This document shows positions 14,050-49,790 of a DNA stretch of 64,000 nucleotides, piece after piece (positions within the stretch are counted from its first letter, which is position 1; every line of letters begins with the position of its first letter). A program made the position numbers and the translations under genes. The notes under the pieces are model-generated. The model saw nothing but the letters and a program-made list of their open reading frames with translations. It did no database searches and was not told the DNA's origin. This DNA comes from Promethearchaeota archaeon (GTDB lineage Archaea; Asgardarchaeota; Hermodarchaeia; Hermodarchaeales; Hermodarchaeaceae): the NCBI GenBank assembly GCA_048938385.1, contig JBHLMG010000008.1, positions 1-64,000 of the forward strand, in the 5' to 3' direction.

Positions 14050-14730
14050 TTATTCTAAAAAAGTTACAATGCGGGAAAAGATCCTCTTCCATGCACCCTG
14101 GCTAAGCCGTCCGGTTTGTGTGTTTTGACGACTAGGGTGATAAGACGCTATCAAGATTGGACTATCACGAATTTCATAAGTTTTGCCATGCTGAAAAGTT
14201 GGTTTCGGTCGAGAAGCTGGATAAAGATAACGTAGACAGACATCAAACGCAATGTGACCAAGGGCTAAGATCACTTTGATGTTCTTCAATAATCTCCACT
14301 CCTTTAGCAGAAAATCACTACAATTAGTAATCTCTTGTGAGGTAGGACGGTTCTTCGGTGGAGCACACCGAACGGGTGCCGTAATAAAGGCATCACGCAA
14401 GATGAGTCCATCATTCCGGCTCTGGCTTATAGGTTGATTCGAAAAACCTGCATCGAAGAGGGCTCTTATCAACCAATCTCCAGAACTGTCGCCAGTGAAC
14501 ATTCTTCCAGTCCGGTTCCCTCCATGGGCTGCAGGTGCTAAACCAATAATGAGTAACCGACCATTAACATCTCCAAAGCCAGGTATGGGTTTCCCCCAGT
14601 ATTTTTCCTTCTGAAACCGTCGAACCTTAGTTTCTGCCACTGCATGGATATAATTTACAAGGCGTGAACACCGATGACATTGTATAATATGTCGGTTAAG
14701 CATCTCCCAATTAGAGTTATTTTTTACCAT
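14050..14730 (-). CDS. udgB: Uracil-DNA glycosylase family 5 (UdgB)
   Basis: CxxC, GLAPAAHGGNRTGRMFTGD, RCAPP.N.P, HPSRQNT. Confidence 0.92.
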   Translation of the reverse strand: MVKNNSNWEMLNRHIIQCHRCSRLVNYIHAVAETKVRRFQKEKYWGKPIPGFGDVNGRLLIIGLAPAAHGGNRTGRMFTGDSSGDWLIRALFDAGFSNQPISQSRNDGLILRDAFITAPVRCAPPKNRPTSQEITNCSDFLLKEWRLLKNIKVILALGHIAFDVCLRYLYPASRPKPTFQHGKTYEIRDSPILIASYHPSRQNTQTGRLSQGAWKRIFSRIVTFLE

Positions 14731-16459: not shown

Positions 16460-16651
16460 GAAGCTAGGTCTGATGGATGATACATAAGCATTTTTTGTTG
16501 AGCTTCAATGTTGTTAATCGCAATTCTCATGGGATTATTTGCAGTAGAATAACTCCCGGAATTGATTTTTTATCAGATTAGTTCGTGCGGCTAGATTTTA
16601 AAACAAGTTATACACTTTCGCGCATCAAACTACTCCTCTGGAGGAAGAAAT

Positions 16652-17290
16652 ATGGCTGGAGAAGAATTACTCGTCTTTTGGATTATGGCTGCGATCTTTG
16701 GTATCGCAACTGTGATGTTTACCTTGCTTTCGTTCCGTTCTGGAGCGCATCAATTTCTTTCCTTCGTTGATATTCTTGTTGCCTTCATAACCACTATATC
16801 TTATGTTCTGATGGCCCTTGGCTTCCTAATGGTGACCTCAAGTTACCTTGAACCAATATATTGGAGCCGTTGGCTATTTTACATGGCTAGTTGTAGCCTT
16901 CTAACCGTATCGGTCGCTGTCATTCTCAAACAGACACACACTGTCACGCTTTCAAAAATTCCGATCTTGACGATGCTTGTAATGTTCTGCGGTTTTTTGG
17001 CGGCTTTTATCACAACTGTTGAGCGCTGGTGGTTCTTTGCGTTCAGCTCTATTGCCTATGTTGCCCTCCTCATTACACTATTCAAAGGTGTACCCCAGGA
17101 AGGGATGAATTCACAAATCATGTGGTTTATTCTCATCTTTTGGTCACTGTTCCCTCTAGTGTTCGTCCTTGCACCAACAGGCTTTGGGTTGATTAACACA
17201 CTCATCGCGGTCATCTTGTATGCTGCCTTAGATGTGATAACGAAAATCATCTATGGGCTGATCATTCTCTTCCGCGTAAAGGAAGCATAA
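16652..17290 (+). CDS. Schizorhodopsin-type microbial rhodopsin (variant FSS motif)
   Basis: 7 TM, 212 aa; helix C YWSRWLFYMASC, helix F FWSLFP, helix G LDVITK with retinal Lys198; SD GGAGG. Confidence 0.9.
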   Translation: MAGEELLVFWIMAAIFGIATVMFTLLSFRSGAHQFLSFVDILVAFITTISYVLMALGFLMVTSSYLEPIYWSRWLFYMASCSLLTVSVAVILKQTHTVTLSKIPILTMLVMFCGFLAAFITTVERWWFFAFSSIAYVALLITLFKGVPQEGMNSQIMWFILIFWSLFPLVFVLAPTGFGLINTLIAVILYAALDVITKIIYGLIILFRVKEA

Positions 17291-17513
17291 CTGATCCGAA
17301 AAATTCCTTGGAATTCAATGGCGTTAACTTGCAAGTAGTGAACCTGCTTTTATTCGGGGGCGATATTTCGATAAATAGCCGTCTCATGGTATTTGATTAG
17401 ATAGTTTTTTAATAAGAAGAATATTTATATAGTACTTACAATCTTAACACCGTTAATACCGAGAATGATTGAACATCACCATCCTCGGGTCAAAATTCAA
17501 GGATGGATGTGAA

Positions 17514-17915
17514 ATGGAAAATATTGTAAAAATTGCAAAAGATGCAGGCCAGTTTAACACCCTGTTAACGGCTGCAACCGCGGCTGGTCTAGCCGAAACA
17601 TTGTCAAATGATGGACCCTTTACGGTTTTCGCCCCAACAGATGATGCATTTTCAGCACTTCCAGAAGGCACGATTGATGCGCTTTTAAAAGATACTGAAA
17701 AGCTGAAAACAATTCTCCTCTACCATGTGGTGGCAGGGAAATACAAGGCTGAAGAAGTCGTCAGTCGGGATGAACTCAAAACTGTCCAGGGTCAGAGCAT
17801 CCATATTGACGCCACTGACGGTGTCAAAGTTGATGAAGCACGCGTTATCAAGGCTGACATTGAAGCTGAGAACGGCGTGATCCATGTCATCGACAAAGTA
17901 ATACTCCCTAATTAG
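17514..17915 (+). CDS. Fasciclin (FAS1) domain protein
   Basis: FTVFAPTDDAF, ILLYHVV, NGVIHVIDKVILP; ATG at 17514; no signal peptide. Confidence 0.95.
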   Translation: MENIVKIAKDAGQFNTLLTAATAAGLAETLSNDGPFTVFAPTDDAFSALPEGTIDALLKDTEKLKTILLYHVVAGKYKAEEVVSRDELKTVQGQSIHIDATDGVKVDEARVIKADIEAENGVIHVIDKVILPN

Positions 17916-17935
17916 GATGCAATGAATCCAAATGT

Positions 17936-17959
17936 AATGAGGGGAAATTTCCCCTCATT
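17936..17959. terminator. Perfect 24-bp inverted repeat (terminator or operator)
   Basis: AATGAGGGGAAA|TTTCCCCTCATT followed by a T-rich tract. Confidence 0.65.
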
Positions 17960-17995
17960 TCTTTAATTTGTAAAGAAAAAACACACAACCTTGAG

Positions 17996-18460
17996 GTGAT
18001 CGGTATGGTTATGCCTAAAATAGATCGGTTAGCACCTGATTTTACAGCTCCCACCGATGCGGAATCGGATTTAACATTAAGTCAACTTCGTGGAAATATC
18101 GTGGTTTTGTATTTTTATCCTCGTGCTGGTACTCCAAGTTGCACAAAAGAGGCCTGCTCCTTCCGTGATAATATGATTCGCCTAACGGGAATGGGCGTTA
18201 AAGTGGTTGGTGTAAGCACTGATAGTGTTAAACGACAAGCTGGGTTCAAGGAAAAGAATGCCCTGCAATTCCCACTAATCGCAGATAAGGAACAACGAGT
18301 TGTTAAGCTCTATGATGTTCTTAAACCTGAAACTGGTTCTGCTCAACGAGCCACATTTCTAATTGATCGTGAAGGAAAAATACGATTTATCTGGCCGAAG
18401 GTACGAGTCCCAGGGCATGTCGACGAAATCATCGCAAAAATCCAAGAACTAAAACTCTAA
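17996..18460 (+). CDS. bcp: Peroxiredoxin Bcp/PrxQ
   Basis: YFYPRAGTPSCTKEACSFRD, GVSTD, RATFLID. Confidence 0.93.
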   Translation: MIGMVMPKIDRLAPDFTAPTDAESDLTLSQLRGNIVVLYFYPRAGTPSCTKEACSFRDNMIRLTGMGVKVVGVSTDSVKRQAGFKEKNALQFPLIADKEQRVVKLYDVLKPETGSAQRATFLIDREGKIRFIWPKVRVPGHVDEIIAKIQELKL

Positions 18461-18491
18461 AATAACATCGTTAAAGGCTTTGGGGTTACGA

Positions 18492-18950
18492 ATGGCAAGA
18501 CTCAAACCAGAAAAGCTGAATGTACGCGTTATTCCTCCACTCCCACTAGTCGGTTTACATTTTCCTCGTCGCTACACACTCACTCATTCAGATCGAACTG
18601 GTGACCTTTTTCTCACAATAGGACAAGACTACGATTATTCACAAATCAAAGGTTGGTACACGAAGTTGATGCGAGATGAAGTTCTTGCTGAAATGGTTCA
18701 AGAAAAAGAACGAATCGCTCTTCATGTATATTGTCAAGTTAGTCGTGGGTTAGGCACACGAGGGTTCCGTGAAACCATTTTCAGGCGAGAATTACCTCTT
18801 GTGCTAGAAGCTATTCGCCTTGGAGATCGTGAACTCTTTGATAGAGAGCCACACTTGGATCAATTAGATGTTCTAATTCATTTTTGTACAAAAACACCAG
18901 AGAATGACATTGTCGAGAACTGGGGTCCAATAAGTCAATATAGGATCTGA
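18492..18950 (+). CDS. STAYGREEN-family protein (Mg-dechelatase homologue)
   Basis: PRRYTLTHSD.TGDLFLTIG, MRDEVLAE, IF.RELPLVLEAI..GD, WGP. Confidence 0.9.
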   Translation: MARLKPEKLNVRVIPPLPLVGLHFPRRYTLTHSDRTGDLFLTIGQDYDYSQIKGWYTKLMRDEVLAEMVQEKERIALHVYCQVSRGLGTRGFRETIFRRELPLVLEAIRLGDRELFDREPHLDQLDVLIHFCTKTPENDIVENWGPISQYRI

Positions 18951-19037: not shown

Positions 19038-20753
19038 TTAATGTGCGTGTTTGAGGGTTTTTTCTAACTTATCCGATGCTAGTGTATTTATCACCGAATT
19101 CGATTTCACCCATCCTCGGCGGGCAGTTGCGACACCGTAGATCATCGCATCCAGCTGTGAAATTTGATGGGCATCACTGTTGATGGCGAGCTTGACATCC
19201 TTTTCTTGGGCAAATCGGGCTGCTGTGTCCGGTAAGTCAAGGCGATCTAAGGCATTGATTTCGAGTGTAATATTGTAGCGTTTGGCTGCGCTGCATAATT
19301 CATCGAGATTGACCTCGTAAGCTGGTCGTTGGGCCACAATTCGTCCTAGTGGATGGGCTAAAATATCTACGAATTGATTTTTCATTGCTTGGATTAGCCG
19401 ATCAGTCATTTCTTCTTCAGAAGCTTTAGTCCTGTAGTGAAGAGCTGCAACAACGAGGTCTGTTTCAGCTAAGACTTCTTTGGTAAGATCTAAGCTACCA
19501 TCTGAAAGAATTTCCACTTCTATTCCGGCGAGAAGATGTAAACCTCGAATTCTTTTATTCAGTGTGCGAATCGTAGCGATTTGCTCACGGAGTTTCTCTT
19601 CATCTAGACCGTGTGCAATCCGTATCTGTTTGGAATGATCACAAATACCTAGGTATTTGTAACCACGCTTCTGAGCGGCAGTGGCCATCGCTTCAATTGT
19701 GTCGTTACCGTCACTCCATTTAGTGTGTACATGAAGGTCGCCCTGTATATCACTAAGGGTAATCAGGGTGGGTAATTGCTTCCTAAGTGCAGCATGAATT
19801 TCACCGGTATCCTCTCGAAGCTCAGGAGGAATCCATTTCAATCCCAGTTTTTTGTAAATCTCTTCTTCCGACGAACCTGCAATTCTTTGATTTGTTTTTT
19901 GATTGAAAAGTCCATACTCGCTTAGCTTCCAACCATGTTTCAGCGCAAGGCGACGAAGTTCGATGTTATGTGTCTTTGAGCCTGTGAAGTACTGTAATGC
20001 AGCTCCAAAGGCTTCGAGTTCAACTACTCGGATATCTACCTGAATGCCATCCTCTAGCATGACGCTTGATTTTGTTATTCCTTGTGCTAGCACTTGAATA
20101 ACTGAAGGGAGGCTTACAAATCTTTGCATGATGGGGAGGGGGTCATCAGACGCTACGAGTATGTCGATATCTCCTACAGTTTCTTTCCAGCGTCGAAGGC
20201 TACCTGCGATCTCGATTTGTTTTACTTCGGAGAGCCTGCTAAGCTGTGTTTTTATTCGCTGAGCGATAGGAGCTGCTTTCCCAATGAAGAAACGCTCTTT
20301 GTATTGAAGGAACAGCTCTAAATTGTGCCGGATATTCTCTTCCGACCGTTCGCCAAAGCCAGGAAGATTGCTAAGTTGATGAGATTCTAGGGCTTGTTGG
20401 AGTTGTCGAATATTTTGGACACTTAATTTATCTCGTAGCAGCTTCGCCGTTTTTGGGCCGATACCAGGTATGGCTAATAACTCCACGAGATCGCTAGGAA
20501 GTCCCTCTCGAAGTGAGTCAAGGTATGTGAGTTTGCCTGTATTAAGCAGCTCATCTAATTTCTTTGCAATTCCTTTCCCAATACCAGGAATCTTTTCTAG
20601 CTCTCCACGCGCTGCAATATCTTGGAGACTTTCAGATAAACCTTCAATAGATCGAGCAGCACGACGATAGGCTCTTGGTCGAAACGATACCTCCTGTAAT
20701 TCTAGCAAGTCTGCAATTTCATTAAGAACCTTGACGACTTCTTTGTTTTCCAT
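19038..20753 (-). CDS. polX: DNA polymerase X / PHP 3'-5' exonuclease
   Basis: HhH motifs; [27 protein letters not shown]; PHP motifs DLHVHT, DHS, SDAH. Confidence 0.95.
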
Positions 20754-21032
20754 AACCTTACACCTATAACTGGCAAAACGCTCTATTCAGTAATAGGTAG
20801 TGATCATCTAATTAAACGAGTTTGGCGGTTCATTCTTTACTATCTCGAGGTTTATGTTCTTTTATTCTATATGCAATTTAAAATGTCTCGAAATTAACTA
20901 CATTTTAATCAATGATTACGTGCACAAGGAACCTATGATGCTGGCTTAAGTTTGCAAGGCATTTATTCATTTCACAGTATTTTTCTATTTAACCATGAGT
21001 TTCGAGTATACTTCTGGATTGGGGGTGAAAAC

Positions 21033-21878
21033 ATGATCGAATTACCTGAGGCTATTACTATTGCGAGACAAATTAACGAAGAACTAAAAGGGCATGAAAT
21101 TGTGTTTGCTCAACGAGGATATTCACCTCACAAATTTGCCTTCACCGGTAAATATTCTCACGAAGAGTTTGCTAGAATGGTGCCAGGTAAGACTATCGAT
21201 GGAGCCCGAGCGGATGGATGGGTAATCTTACTTGATTTAGAACCTGGCTATCTACTTAGCTTAGGTTGTGGTGGAGAACGGATACTATTTCACGAGAATG
21301 AAAAAACCCTGCCTAAGAAACACCAACTCATACTGGGCTTCCATGATAATAGTTATCTCACGGTCACTATTACTGGATGGGGTGAGGTTCGGCTGCTCGA
21401 ACAATCTGACCTCTCTAATCATCCACACATTAAGAAGGATGCAATCTCACCCCTCAGCAAAGCCTTCACTTTCGATTACTTTAACAAGCTGTTCGATTCG
21501 TTACCAGAAAAAAAGCAGACACAGCAAACCAGTGCTAAATACTTCATCATCAGCGAACCCGGCGTTTGGGGGGTCGGCAACGGATGCCTGCAGGATATTC
21601 TCTATCGTGCTAAGATTCATCCCAAACGCCAAATGCTGAGTCTCTCAGCCAATGAACGAAAAACTCTATATCATGCAATTGTGCAGACCCTTACCAAAAT
21701 GGTGGAGCTTGGGGGAAGGGACAGCGAGTATGACCTTCACAATCAACCAGGTCGCTATAACCGAATCCTTCAAAGCAAAAGCGTGGGTCAATCCTGCCCA
21801 GAATGCGGAGCCCTGATCGCCAGGATTTCCTACCTTGGTGGAACTGTTTACTTCTGTTCCTCCTGTCAGGTCGAGTAA
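21033..21878 (+). CDS. Fpg/Nei family DNA glycosylase-like protein
   Basis: N-terminal MIELPE, H2TH GVGN..QDIL..AKIHP, C-terminal Zn finger CPEC...CSSCQ; SD GGGGTGA. Confidence 0.88.
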   Translation: MIELPEAITIARQINEELKGHEIVFAQRGYSPHKFAFTGKYSHEEFARMVPGKTIDGARADGWVILLDLEPGYLLSLGCGGERILFHENEKTLPKKHQLILGFHDNSYLTVTITGWGEVRLLEQSDLSNHPHIKKDAISPLSKAFTFDYFNKLFDSLPEKKQTQQTSAKYFIISEPGVWGVGNGCLQDILYRAKIHPKRQMLSLSANERKTLYHAIVQTLTKMVELGGRDSEYDLHNQPGRYNRILQSKSVGQSCPECGALIARISYLGGTVYFCSSCQVE

Positions 21879-46401: not shown

Positions 46402-47589
46402 ATGCCAACTTTGGTAAAAACTGCTGCGCGTTTACAATCAGTATCCCCTAGTGGGTTACGCGAATTTTTTGAAATTGGGGCTAAGCTTTCGGCCAAGGGA
46501 GTTGATGTGATTTCCTTGGGGATTGGTGACCTTGATTTACCTCTACCCACATTCCTTGGTGACGCGATCGCCGACGCTTTTGCTACTGGGCAAACTCATT
46601 ATTCTTCGAATGCTGGAGTTCTGGAATTGCGTGAGGCAATTGCTAATAGGTATGAGAGCACATACCAACTCGATTATACTCCTGAGGAAGTTTTAGTTAC
46701 TTGTGGTGCCTTGGAAGGTCTGCTAGATATTATGCTTGCGTTAATTGATCCTGGAGATAGGGTGCTAATCCAGGATCCAGCTTTTGGTTATTTTGCTAAC
46801 CAAGCCATTATGGCTGGTGCAGAAGTAGAACTTATTCCCATGACAGTGGATTTTGATTTGAATGTAAACGCGTTTGATAGGGCCATTGAGAAATTTGGAC
46901 CTAAACTAGTAGTGATTAATTCCCCCTGCAATCCTACAGGTTCTGTCGCCTCACGGAAGAACATCAAAGAGATAGTGGCACTCACTAAGGAACATGATTG
47001 CATACTTGTTTCCGATGAATGCTATGAGTTCCTGCGTTACGATGGACATAAACACACATGTTCTGCTGAGTTTTCACAAGAGAATGTCATCGTCGTCAAC
47101 AGCTTTTCAAAGGCTCTGGCGATGACGGGTTTACGCTTAGGTTATGTAATTGCTCCCGCACAGTTGATGCGTCCAATCTATCAGGTCCACCAATACAATA
47201 CGGCTTGTGCTCCAACGCCAATCCAGGTGGGTGCTACTAAGACGATTACCAATGCTGAGGCTTTTCAGGGAATCATTGATCTTCATCGGAATGTGTTAAA
47301 TGAGCGGCGAAAAGTAGCCATCGAATGTTTCAAGCCCCTTGAGGGGTTCACTCTCACCTATGATCCAATTGCCGGTTTCTACCTCTTTCCCGATGTAACG
47401 GATACTGGCATGACCGGTCCCGAATTTGCCATTACACTCCTTGAGGAAACGGGGGTAATTGTGGTGCCAGGTGACCAATTTGGAAAAGCCTATCCAGATA
47501 ATATTCGAATTAGTGTAGGGTCGACTCCTCCAAACAGAATTCGTGAAGCAGCTTCACGCATCTCTTCATTCCTTGAGAAGAAGTGCTAG
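46402..47589 (+). CDS. PLP-dependent aminotransferase class I/II
   Basis: NSPCNPTG, SDECY, NSFSK.LAMTGLRLG. Confidence 0.93.
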   Translation: MPTLVKTAARLQSVSPSGLREFFEIGAKLSAKGVDVISLGIGDLDLPLPTFLGDAIADAFATGQTHYSSNAGVLELREAIANRYESTYQLDYTPEEVLVTCGALEGLLDIMLALIDPGDRVLIQDPAFGYFANQAIMAGAEVELIPMTVDFDLNVNAFDRAIEKFGPKLVVINSPCNPTGSVASRKNIKEIVALTKEHDCILVSDECYEFLRYDGHKHTCSAEFSQENVIVVNSFSKALAMTGLRLGYVIAPAQLMRPIYQVHQYNTACAPTPIQVGATKTITNAEAFQGIIDLHRNVLNERRKVAIECFKPLEGFTLTYDPIAGFYLFPDVTDTGMTGPEFAITLLEETGVIVVPGDQFGKAYPDNIRISVGSTPPNRIREAASRISSFLEKKC

Positions 47590-49790
47590 CGGGTTCGAAG
47601 ATAAGCATCAAGAACTCCCTGATCCCGTTTTTCGATGAAATGCTCTACTAGTCGTTCATAATGCCAGCCCAAGGACGAGAGAAGCGTATCGGTGGCACGG
47701 AGGAGGAGTTCTGTGTACTTGTCTTTGTCGTACTGGGCTGCTGCCGAGGTATGTGGTAGAGCGACGCGCCGGTGAGGGTGTCCGGCTTTGGCGTTGGTGT
47801 GTACATACATCACCGGTTGACCGGGATGTACTTCTTGGCCATAACGAATGGCGAGTTCAGCGGCAATAGCCTGGCTACATTGTTGTTGATAGTCAGTGGG
47901 GGATCGGCTGATGTTCTGAGTAATAACGAGGTCTTCAACTGCGACGACTCCGCTACGCACGCGGTTCACATAGTCGGTGACGATGTCAAGCAGCAGGGGC
48001 AGCAGTTCCTGCATTTCTTCGAGGTCATCTGCTCCTGCCAGGCATGTGATGAGGTCAAGTTGGAGTTGCTTAATCAGTGGTGGCGTGTCACGGCGACGAA
48101 GTTCAATACCACGGACCTTGATGGTCCCGTCTTCTTTCACGCCACAGTACCGCGTGAGGGCTCCGTAGGGCTGCCCTCGGCAGGGAAGGAACATGATCCA
48201 GCGGTATCGTCCTTCGAACTCTATGTTGAGCCCTGTTGCCTCGCTTATGGCTTCGCCGACTTTGATGTAATCCTCCACGGAGGCGCCGGATTTTTGCAGC
48301 CAGACACAATCCACGATACCGTGGAGAACTTGGAAGCCCCGTCGCTCGCAGATAGTCTTCGTATCTAAGAGGACGCGACGACTAAAGGCGGTTACGCATT
48401 CGTAGGCCTCGACTCGACCAAACCGGGAGGCGCGAAATCCGAGGTAGCCAAATGACACAACTAACAACCATTTCAAGGCAGATTGTCGGGCTTCGTAAAT
48501 GGGGTCCTCGTGGCGATGCTGTTTGTAGAAAGTGCGTTTCTCAAGGATCGGCTGTAGGAAGGCGGGGACAATACCTGTCGTTCGTCGACATAACCAGTAG
48601 CCTAGTTCCGGCACGATGGTGGCGTCCTCGGGACAACAGTCGCAGAAGAGGGCTTCTGGCGATATGTTGTACTTGACCATCAACGCTGGGTACATGGACA
48701 GAAAGTCTAACTCGCCCACATCGCTGAAGATGCCGACTCGGGGAGTAATCACATGTCCTCCTCGATCAGCGTTGAGTAGTTCAATGCCCGTCTTGTACTG
48801 TTCCGGATCTGCCTTAGTCTCTGGAACCAGAACGCCACGGTACAGGGCTTCTTGCATCTGCAGCATGTTAATACCCGTGCCAGGACTACTCCGGGCCATC
48901 TGCTGCGGAGGAAAGGCGGTGAGCCGGCTCGCTTCGACTAACCCCTCGAAGTTGCCAAAAGTCATGTGCGATCGATCTAAGTGCAATCGGCCCCGCAAAA
49001 TGAAAGGATGCGGTCGATAGAAGACAGGTCCGCCGTATCGGAACACGGCGCGCCCAGCAGGCAAAGTCTTGTCATGGAAGGTGTGAGGGGTTTGGTCGCG
49101 ATTCAGCGAAAACTCTTGCACCATCCCCGCATCTTGGGCGCGTTGGATGAGGGCAGGAAAGACCTGTGCATCTCCGTGTTCGGTGAAGATGATGTCCGGA
49201 TCTTGAGCCGTAACCCAATCTTGGAGCATCGAGGGCTCGGTTGTGTGAAGCGTCTCGCCTTTGGAGCTGGTGGCAGTGAAGAGATCCTCTCCTTCCAGGC
49301 GCAGGTCTACGGTATCAAGGGGGGGCAAAGTATAATCCAGAGCCCAGCGGGAATCGCAAGAGTCGATCTGCGTCACACGGCGCCCCGAGGACTCGGTGTG
49401 AACCTCTACTTGCTCGAAGGGGAAGCGCCGCTGTTCAAGATACCACAGCTGCGTCGCGGAGAGATCGCCGTTGAAGATGCGAAATCGAGGGACGGCGAGG
49501 GCTTTGATTTCGCGAATAACACGAGCGAGCTGAGTGCAGGAGGAAACGGTCACAGCGATGACCGGGCGTGGCGGACCTCGCAGCTGTAGCGGGTGAAACT
49601 CGGGCGTCACGGCGCTTACTAGGGGGTGACTTTCGAACAGCGGCGCATAGTCTTCGAAGCGTACTCCCGGAGCGTGTAAATAGAACCGTGGCTGGTAGGA
49701 TACCTCTAGGGGCACAGTCGCTTTTTCCGTTCGTAGCCATAGGAGTAGGTGGTCGGCTCGAGGGGTGACATCGAGAATCATACCACGCAT
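47586..49790 (-). CDS. polB2: Family B DNA polymerase, PolB2 group
   Basis: Motif A DFLSMYP, motif B RQ.ALKWLLVVSFGYLG, motif C HGIVDC (PolB2-type), KVRGIE.RRRD; exonuclease motifs degenerate. Confidence 0.88.
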   Translation of the reverse strand: MRGMILDVTPRADHLLLWLRTEKATVPLEVSYQPRFYLHAPGVRFEDYAPLFESHPLVSAVTPEFHPLQLRGPPRPVIAVTVSSCTQLARVIREIKALAVPRFRIFNGDLSATQLWYLEQRRFPFEQVEVHTESSGRRVTQIDSCDSRWALDYTLPPLDTVDLRLEGEDLFTATSSKGETLHTTEPSMLQDWVTAQDPDIIFTEHGDAQVFPALIQRAQDAGMVQEFSLNRDQTPHTFHDKTLPAGRAVFRYGGPVFYRPHPFILRGRLHLDRSHMTFGNFEGLVEASRLTAFPPQQMARSSPGTGINMLQMQEALYRGVLVPETKADPEQYKTGIELLNADRGGHVITPRVGIFSDVGELDFLSMYPALMVKYNISPEALFCDCCPEDATIVPELGYWLCRRTTGIVPAFLQPILEKRTFYKQHRHEDPIYEARQSALKWLLVVSFGYLGFRASRFGRVEAYECVTAFSRRVLLDTKTICERRGFQVLHGIVDCVWLQKSGASVEDYIKVGEAISEATGLNIEFEGRYRWIMFLPCRGQPYGALTRYCGVKEDGTIKVRGIELRRRDTPPLIKQLQLDLITCLAGADDLEEMQELLPLLLDIVTDYVNRVRSGVVAVEDLVITQNISRSPTDYQQQCSQAIAAELAIRYGQEVHPGQPVMYVHTNAKAGHPHRRVALPHTSAAAQYDKDKYTELLLRATDTLLSSLGWHYERLVEHFIEKRDQGVLDAYLRTR

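Follow-up and report, generated by a model that had tools for sequence, protein, structure and literature searches.

A schizorhodopsin, FAS1, peroxiredoxin and Staygreen gene cassette in Candidatus Hermodarchaeum as a candidate light and photo-oxidative stress island

Gene content of the locus

The DNA analysed here (hereafter the window) is a stretch of 64,000 nucleotides from the genome of an archaeon (G000), at the beginning of contig C34. Between positions 16652 and 18950 it carries four consecutive open reading frames (ORFs), all on the forward strand and intact in appearance, which encode a schizorhodopsin (SzR), a stand-alone fasciclin (FAS1) protein, a Bcp-type peroxiredoxin and a homologue of Staygreen (SGR). 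An original prediction, made from the letters of the window alone, had named the four genes in this way and read them as a light and photo-oxidative stress locus of an Asgard archaeon. Pfam matches and solved relatives bear out the gene identities, and the host is indeed an Asgard archaeon of Candidatus Hermodarchaeum (closest public record Candidatus Hermodarchaeum yapensis). Start codons were chosen from the positions at which the matches of relatives begin and from Shine-Dalgarno (SD) sites. An Rfam scan of the whole window returned no RNA family, and a sigma-70 promoter scan was uninformative for an archaeal host, only its terminator-like match being retained. The genes and elements of the cassette are as follows.

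16592..16603, forward strand: TATA/BRE-like box TAGATTTTAAAA of the SzR promoter, conserved in 10 genus genomes
16652..17290, forward strand: schizorhodopsin-family opsin, 212 aa, start ATG 16652, PF01036 6e-23
17424..17457, forward strand: FAS1 promoter, with the TATA box TTTATATA at 17424-17431 and the palindrome CTTAACAccGTTAAT (also CTTAACAnnGTTAAT) at 17443-17457
17514..17915, forward strand: stand-alone FAS1 (fasciclin) protein, 133 aa, PF02469 3e-41
17936..17959, forward strand: hairpin AATGAGGGG-loop-CCCCTCATT followed by a T-run, 10-bp stem, minimum free energy -18.9 kcal/mol, z -3.4
18005..18460, forward strand: Bcp/PrxQ-type atypical 2-Cys peroxiredoxin, start ATG 18005, PF00578 1e-37
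18492..18950, forward strand: STAYGREEN (Mg-dechelatase) homologue, 152 aa, start ATG 18492, PF12638 6e-42

The best solved relative of the opsin is SzR4 (7e4g, 1.6e-30), followed by the group of sensory rhodopsins (3e-10), and the Antarctic rhodopsin AntR is also among its closest relatives. It has the traits of the family, namely a short type-1 opsin chain (~200 aa), a Schiff-base Lys in helix 7 and known SzRs as its nearest relatives; the Schiff-base Lys198 and Asp194 are both kept and aligned with SzR4. The helix-C motif reads F-S-S and not F-S-E, the motif with the cytoplasmic Glu81 required for inward H+ pumping, so that an ungapped alignment places Ser at the Glu81 position of SzR4/SzR1. 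Every genus member has Ser here, whereas the sister lineage g27 has Asp and the SzRs of Loki genomes have Glu. The E81Q variant of SzR1 loses all transport (PMC7148096). By sequence the window opsin belongs to the SzR family, and its pump function is not assured. Helix B of the protein carries an Asp (FVDIL). G000 has no rhodopsin besides this one.

Translation of FAS1 starts at ATG 17514 and not at TTG 17469, since the matches of all relatives begin at 17514. The protein scores 141 bits against a Pfam cut-off of 22 over the full-length domain. The domain begins at residue 3, indicating that there is no signal peptide and that the protein is leaderless and predicted to be cytoplasmic. Among solved single-domain proteins it is closest to Rhodobacter Fdp (1w7d, 8e-36) and to CupS, a cytoplasmic subunit of NDH-1 (6tjv/2mxa, 8e-34), whereas the carotenoid-binding AstaP (8c18) is a distant match (1.6e-10); carotenoid binding by FAS1 proteins is not yet predicted by sequence (PMC10147662).

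Bcp contains the motif TPSC-TKEA-C (TPSCTKEAC), in which the peroxidatic and resolving Cys stand five residues apart as expected of BCP/PrxQ proteins, and it matches BCP structures with up to 4e-35 (5enu). Its scores are below the equivalog cut-offs of NCBIfam (PrxQ, 108 bits against 260; PRK09437, 103 against 140), which places it at the level of family membership only. The gene is preceded by a conserved SD, GAGGTGAT, and is an extra paralogue, a second Bcp with 68% identity being encoded at C12:10252-10704.

SGR is present as a single copy in the G000 genome and scores 143 bits against a Pfam cut-off of 27, covering model positions 2-147 of 147. It matches AbSGR-h, the Anaerolineae enzyme (PDB 7y5y), with 8e-48 over 151 aligned residues. 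His36, Asp38 and Asp66 correspond to H32, D34 and D62 of AbSGR-h, and Arg30, Tyr32, Thr33 and Asp116 to its structural residues Arg26, Tyr28, Thr29 and Asp114. All the AbSGR-h residues described as essential (among them D34 and D62) or structural (PMC8531759) are present in the window SGR.

Transcription units and regulatory elements

Judged from its intergenic gaps, the cassette looks like about three transcription units, namely SzR, FAS1 and Bcp-SGR. SzR and FAS1 are separated by 223 bp with a TATA box and an operator-like palindrome, and FAS1 and Bcp by 89 bp with the hairpin and T-run. The gap between Bcp and SGR is 31 bp, as the original prediction had given it, a spacing that the choice of start codons upholds. 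A single operon would have short gaps and no internal promoters or terminators; here only Bcp-SGR looks bicistronic, SGR probably being co-transcribed with Bcp. Upstream of SzR, an SD (GGAGG) lies at 16640-16644, and a TAGA-TTTTAWA block ~50-60 nt 5' of the ATG is kept in 10 genus genomes, the remaining spacer diverging.

The ~110 nt before the FAS1 ATG are nearly invariant in eight genus genomes, with the operator-like palindrome at the expected transcription start. The palindrome (TTAAC-N3-GTTAA) has nine copies in the G000 genome. Five of these are in promoter gaps, which belong to FAS1, a CopA-type heavy-metal ATPase, TusA-DsrE-cysteine desulfurase, an XRE-HTH/cysteine desulfurase pair and an ArsR/ABC-permease pair; the promoter-gap copies other than that of FAS1 are at C51:29284, C34:64400 (just beyond the window end), C2:35771 and C37:38103. 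The sharing of the palindrome among these promoters points to a metal, sulfur or redox regulator and not to a light regulator, and its copies may mark a regulon of that kind. Candidates for the binding protein are the ArsR-type (C37:37856-38098) and XRE-type (C2:35388-35750) regulators.

The inverted repeat that had been noticed after the FAS1 gene is real and conserved in the genus. The stem is kept in all eight genus genomes that have a FAS1-Bcp junction, with a loop of 3-6 nt, and the region was also scored as a terminator-like match. Since the stem is conserved and the loop length is variable, an RNA hairpin fits better than an operator of fixed spacing, and we considered a DNA operator the less likely of the two. 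The hairpin is likely to act as a terminator or stabiliser of the FAS1 transcript. The four genes had been proposed to be a co-located regulon and not one operon. The separate conserved promoters and the conserved hairpin agree with the view that they are not one operon, while a single shared regulon is not supported because the FAS1 palindrome is common to copper-ATPase and sulfur-trafficking genes and not to SzR or Bcp.

Conservation of the cassette within the genus

The comparison within the genus covered 15 Candidatus Hermodarchaeum genomes with completeness of 72-91%, for which the absence of a gene reads as 'not found'. SzR was present in 11 of them, FAS1 in eight and SGR in eight, and the order and orientation SzR>FAS1>Bcp>SGR was unbroken across the genus. 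All four genes occur together in G000, G006, G009 and G014, on the metagenome contigs L207 and L211, and in G011, where the contig ends within SzR. SzR-FAS1-Bcp was found in G001, G008 and the metagenome contig L210 (photolyase directly after), and L206 carries SzR-FAS1 and ends in Bcp. G007 has FAS1-Bcp-SGR without SzR. In G013, Bcp-SGR and SzR are on separate short contigs and FAS1 was not found, a matter of contig gaps. The content of the cassette is thus nested (SzR alone, SzR-FAS1-Bcp, or all four genes), and it has been inherited as a block of fixed order. FAS1-Bcp and SGR co-occur across the genus genomes even where they are unlinked, as in G001.

This unchanged block is surrounded by at least four combinations of flanking genes. 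The same order and orientation in at least seven independent assemblies with different flanks indicates linkage beyond chance, and the conservation of linkage in related genomes, on which the original prediction had been made to depend, is thereby established.

In the relatives, the cassette is flanked by gene Y, located upstream of SzR and read in the same direction, and by a DNA photolyase gene in convergent orientation. Beyond the photolyase are a PNPOx-like gene, FixCX, a CrtI-type gene, CrtB, a CrtD-type gene, a LyeJ-like UbiA prenyltransferase and CruF, a carotenoid cluster that is a bacterioruberin-type set. CrtB and CrtI are 4-6 kb from the cassette in G006/L207 and G014/L211, so that the opsin is linked to crt genes in relatives but not in the window; the CrtB and CrtI genes of G000 are on C25, where photolyase and Y are also adjacent, 61 bp apart.

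Component genes outside the genus

Beyond the genus, a comparison of 80 SGR loci drawn from all prokaryotes, 15 non-genus Asgard SzR loci and 17 FAS1-orthologue loci gave no further example of the four-gene set. The combination that had been put forward as a candidate for a new system was therefore seen in one genus only and does not stand as a wider system.

When SGR neighbours were clustered without bias, heliorhodopsin was the commonest (13 loci within 3.5 kb), and at nine loci it was directly upstream of SGR on the same strand, 20-139 bp away. Photolyase was the second-commonest neighbour family (10/80 loci). Within 6 kb of SGR there was a rhodopsin at 15 of the 80 loci (heliorhodopsin in 14), a photolyase at 10, a TspO-like gene at nine and a true TspO at two (11/80 in total), and DUF523/DUF1722 at six; at least one of rhodopsin, photolyase, TspO/TspO-like and DUF523/DUF1722 was present within this distance at 33. 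A membrane family of 260-320 aa was found near SGR at eight loci, and of the three members compared with Pfam one matched TspO/MBR (30.6 bits against a cut-off of 24) and two had no match. As there are at most one or two rhodopsins per genome, chance adjacency would be ~1% or less by our own estimate, which involves no statistical test. Rhodopsin-linked SGRs belong to at least seven clades of the SGR tree, from Hermod, Hod, several Anaerolineae, two Dehalococcoidia, Bathyarchaeia and several Loki.

Four lineages outside the genus were examined for FAS1 orthologues, and in three of them these adjoin photolyase, heliorhodopsin or TspO. G210 has an island of MFS-DUF1722-DUF523-photolyase-PNPOx-FAS1...Y-like...heliorhodopsin, FAS1 is 5 kb from heliorhodopsin in G258, and FAS1 is back-to-back with a true TspO (1e-46) in G058 and G314. 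At two Loki loci FAS1 is 3-5 kb from SGR. The neighbours of SzR relatives include CrtI-type genes and heliorhodopsin (L213), MFS and PNPOx (L218), a TspO-like gene (G257), and MFS with an SGR fragment (G208). Bcp was rejected as a general partner of SGR, being near it in Hermodarchaeum and at one Thorarchaeota locus and otherwise represented by weak redoxin matches only.

Together, the photolyase and carotenoid flanks of the relatives and the position of SGR beside heliorhodopsin, photolyase and TspO-like genes elsewhere strengthen the light and photo-oxidative theme of the original prediction, whereas its detoxification chemistry and its light sensing are things that we infer.

Two further arrangements of SGR were observed. 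The SGR nearest to those of the genus, at L032:5986-6903 (Thorarchaeota bin8 chromosome CP070658.1), is an ORF of 305 aa, twice the usual length, and may have a C-terminal fusion or extension. In Loki genomes (L107:2861-3853, L089, L180), a divergent MFS gene, SGR, a 200-aa methyltransferase and an SDR form a conserved array, with DUF523/DUF1722 (photolyase-associated), photolyase, PNPOx and FAS1 close by; the MFS-SGR-methyltransferase-SDR array may be a pathway for pigment processing and export.

Tetrapyrrole, carotenoid and retinal genes

HemB (ALAD, porphobilinogen synthase) was found in none of the 19 family genomes (G000 and 18 others), and 11 of 14 control genomes were positive. Judged from this gene content, the lineage is very probably unable to make haem, cobalamin and other tetrapyrroles de novo. 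Any Mg-tetrapyrrole substrate of SGR would then be exogenous, and the 'chlorophyll debris' suggested as such a substrate in the original prediction is consistent with this result.

For retinal synthesis, a search for blh (PF15461), made without a positive control, gave no match in G000, and across 400 Asgard genomes, the 26 with SzR among them, no match exceeded the cut-off. RPE65 (PF03055) and heterodimeric lycopene cyclase (PF18916) also had no match in G000. Matches to the PF05834 'lycopene cyclase' model were discarded as non-specific FAD enzymes, as the model also scores in control genomes, E. coli for example, that are not known to make carotenoids. The combination of blh/brp and lycopene cyclase that marks an opsin-retinal cluster was thus not found in G000. 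Retinal had been suggested to be possibly scavenged because no blh or crt genes are in the window. This argument has to be reworded: crt genes do exist on C25 and adjoin the cassette in relatives, while no blh, RPE65 or clear cyclase was found in the genome.

Neither heliorhodopsin nor TspO was found in G000. A CarH/LitR regulator was considered and rejected: the sole B12-binding_2 match in G000 is a 232-aa corrinoid-type ORF on C22, far from both loci, and no CarH-like protein was found.

Genes flanking the cassette in the window

On one side the cassette of G000 adjoins an AAT-family gene and on the other PolX; UDG and Fpg/Nei are nearby.

14050-14730, reverse strand: family-4/5-type uracil-DNA glycosylase (UDG)
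19038-20753, reverse strand: PolX with a PHP domain
20952-21878, forward strand: Fpg/Nei

In G000 the cassette has been relocated as a unit to a site beside three genes of DNA repair, PolX, Fpg and UDG. An assembly chimera is unlikely to be the origin of this arrangement, since the independent contigs L216 and L217 also join SzR to PolX-UDG-GYD, which argues for a rearrangement. PolX, Fpg, UDG and AAT were rejected as conserved partners of the cassette because the flanks vary among relatives. At the Loki loci L083 and L092, Fpg immediately follows SGR.

Gene Y, which is always just upstream of SzR in the relatives, encodes 157 aa (G000 C25:94028-94498; L111:5029-5502) with a weak match to ATP10 (PF05176), and a search by sequence gave no solved relative. 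Y-like genes in L082, L110 and L180, which represent a Promineifilaceae bacterium and two Loki genomes, have SGR or FAS1/photolyase nearby. Elsewhere in the window, an ORF of 734 aa for a family B DNA polymerase (47586-49790, reverse strand) has 55-59% G+C compared with ~43% in the rest of the window, and may be foreign or mobile DNA.

Comparison with known systems

Bacterial and haloarchaeal rhodopsin 'photosystem' clusters combine an opsin with crtE/I/B/Y and blh/brp, often together with a photolyase. The cassette of the relatives resembles them in adjoining crtB, crtI-type genes and a photolyase, but the crt set there is bacterioruberin-type (LyeJ-like UbiA, CruF, CrtD) with no blh/brp or clear cyclase found, and FAS1, Bcp and SGR are not part of the known clusters. 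Light and singlet-oxygen regulons of bacteria include the carotenoid-photolyase sets controlled by CarH/LitR and RpoE-ChrR of Rhodobacter. They likewise group photolyase, carotenoid, TspO, fasciclin and peroxidase genes as a light-stress response; the host of the window, however, is archaeal and has no CarH-like protein that we could find. To our knowledge, the bacterial and archaeal Staygreen homologues are Mg-dechelatases active in vitro with no known natural role, and no physiological role has been settled for heliorhodopsins and schizorhodopsins.

The heliorhodopsin TfHeR forms a partner operon with a class II CPD photolyase (PMC9769723). Such operons are similar to the locus in that a microbial rhodopsin gene is beside light-damage genes, and differ in that the window has SzR, a type-1 opsin of opposite topology, located two genes and separate promoters away from SGR, an arrangement that implies no protein-protein interaction. 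AbSGR-h is a characterised Mg-dechelatase, the Anaerolineae homologue of plant and algal STAYGREEN (PDB 7y5y; PMC8531759, PMC11006732). The window SGR is of the same family and keeps its essential and structural residues, but its host has no chlorophyll and very probably no tetrapyrrole synthesis, and the neighbourhood yielded no further enzyme of chlorophyll catabolism. The window FAS1 is comparable to CupS of cyanobacterial NDH-1MS, as a single domain of ~130 aa that is predicted to be cytoplasmic. AstaP has a FAS1 domain able to bind carotenoids under photo-oxidative stress (PMC10147662, PMC7477208); the window FAS1 gene shares with it a presumed photo-oxidative-stress context, but its similarity to AstaP is weak in comparison with CupS.

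Among the papers searched, we found none joining heliorhodopsin with staygreen, stay-green or dechelatase and no link of schizorhodopsin to fasciclin or peroxiredoxin in the ten top-ranked matches; a single paper mentions both Hermodarchaeota and rhodopsin, and its subject is Thermoplasmatota. Compared with rhodopsin-centred light-response islands, the locus stands out by its opsin, which is SzR and not heliorhodopsin, by its leaderless FAS1, by the additional Bcp copy, by the nested cassette and by a host lineage that seems unable to make tetrapyrroles.

Possible functions of the locus

On balance, we lean slightly towards reading the locus as the Hermodarchaeum version of a modular light and photo-oxidative stress gene island, and not as a four-protein machine. 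The substrates of the proteins, induction by light and any benefit of the genes are what we infer. Under exposure to light and trace oxygen, SzR would use light, either as an inward proton pump or, given the Ser-for-Glu replacement, in an altered or sensory function, and the accessory genes would limit photosensitised damage. The extra Bcp could reduce (lipid) hydroperoxides via its Cys pair, and SGR could strip Mg from chlorophyll-type pigments of external origin, which would enter the cell by partitioning out of the detritus of phototrophs. An abundant cytoplasmic FAS1 might bind a hydrophobic ligand (tetrapyrrole, carotenoid or lipid) or, in the manner of CupS, dock on a membrane partner. 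What links the genes would be common selection in niches exposed to light together with co-inheritance, and perhaps a partly shared regulation. The tie of SGR to a second, unrelated rhodopsin family, to a photolyase and to carotenoid genes, in a lineage that seems unable to make tetrapyrroles, points to light exposure and an exogenous chlorophyll-type pigment as the common factor, and not to a protein contact specific to heliorhodopsin.

Several observations weigh against this interpretation. SzR occurs without the other three genes in G003, G010 and G012, and SGR is unlinked to the cassette in G001, where it nests in the Hermodarchaeum SGR clade and is thus a relocated orthologue. As the four-gene set is found in one genus only, shared descent explains much of its conservation. 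The palindrome of FAS1 is common to metal and sulfur genes and not to SzR, Bcp or photolyase, and FAS1 of the Asgard family f6 is in an unrelated context (phosphoglucomutase, hydrolase, small GTPase). Outside the genus, a good Bcp match near SGR was found at one Thorarchaeota locus only (L034), with two more distant redoxin matches within ~2 kb. Removal of Mg alone does not put an end to photosensitisation, and no enzyme for a later step of chlorophyll catabolism was identified. To judge by their contig names, several of the source samples are presumably dark sediments.

Some of these points would also be expected if the genes were accidental neighbours at a recombination hot spot by the photolyase, kept together by recent common descent and without functional connection. 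Nested presence and absence at one site, the breaking of several contigs at the cassette locus, the separate promoters, the operator-like motif that FAS1 shares with unrelated metal and sulfur genes, and the failure to find the four-gene set outside the genus all fit such an origin, and a block of only 2.3 kb would be expected to have few random breakpoints inside. We nevertheless regard it as unlikely, since each component is independently tied to light or tetrapyrrole genes in distant lineages, the order is kept through at least four flank combinations, including the relocation as a unit in G000, and FAS1-Bcp and SGR co-occur in G001 even though they are unlinked there.

A closer functional connection would exist if the F-S-S SzR were a light sensor that directly binds and regulates FAS1, Bcp or SGR, with FAS1 as a docking or transducer subunit similar to CupS. 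The whole genus has Ser at the position where E81Q abolishes pumping in SzR1 (PMC7148096), and the leaderless FAS1, where present alongside SzR, always directly follows it and has CupS among its closest solved single-domain relatives. Heliorhodopsin, moreover, regulates operon partners such as photolyase (PMC9769723), and it is directly upstream of SGR at nine loci. However, SzR is without FAS1 in three genus genomes and at all other Asgard SzR loci examined, G007 has FAS1-Bcp-SGR without SzR, and FAS1 has its own strongly conserved promoter. The topologies of SzR and heliorhodopsin are unrelated, which makes a shared partner interface unlikely. In the sister lineage the Glu81 position is occupied by Asp, and the helix-B Asp could rescue pumping. 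A sensor-partner module of this kind therefore seems improbable to us.

A supply of pigment is, in our judgement, a little less probable still. Here FAS1 and/or SGR would serve the opsin chromophore, by carrying scavenged retinal or carotenoid or by making a Mg-free chlorin as an accessory pigment. The failure to find blh, RPE65 or heterodimeric lycopene cyclase in G000, or blh above cut-off in 400 Asgard genomes, and the linkage of SGR to two unrelated rhodopsin families would suit this role, although the blh search was without a positive control. We know of no microbial rhodopsin that uses a chlorin, however, and SzR is without FAS1, Bcp and SGR in three genus genomes. Carotenoid binding is within the reach of a FAS1 protein, as AstaP shows, but in algal AstaPs the ability arose by neofunctionalisation and a cyanobacterial FAS1 homologue lacks it (PMC10147662); the window FAS1 resembles Fdp and CupS much more closely than AstaP. 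In its boldest form, which we think the least credible of all, the SGR and leaderless FAS1 of non-phototrophs would be a rhodopsin-linked system for handling tetrapyrroles, in which Mg-free chlorin from scavenged pigment, carried by FAS1- or TspO-type binders, would not merely be detoxified but would serve SzR or heliorhodopsin as an accessory light-harvesting or signalling pigment.

Biological implications

The nested cassette, with SzR first, then FAS1-Bcp and then SGR, provides a natural 'deletion series' of genomes, and its four small genes are directly assayable. If the locus is indeed a light and photo-oxidative stress island, heterotrophic sediment archaea would carry dedicated defences against photosensitising pigments, which would inform the question whether lit, micro-oxic niches form part of the habitat of Asgard archaea.

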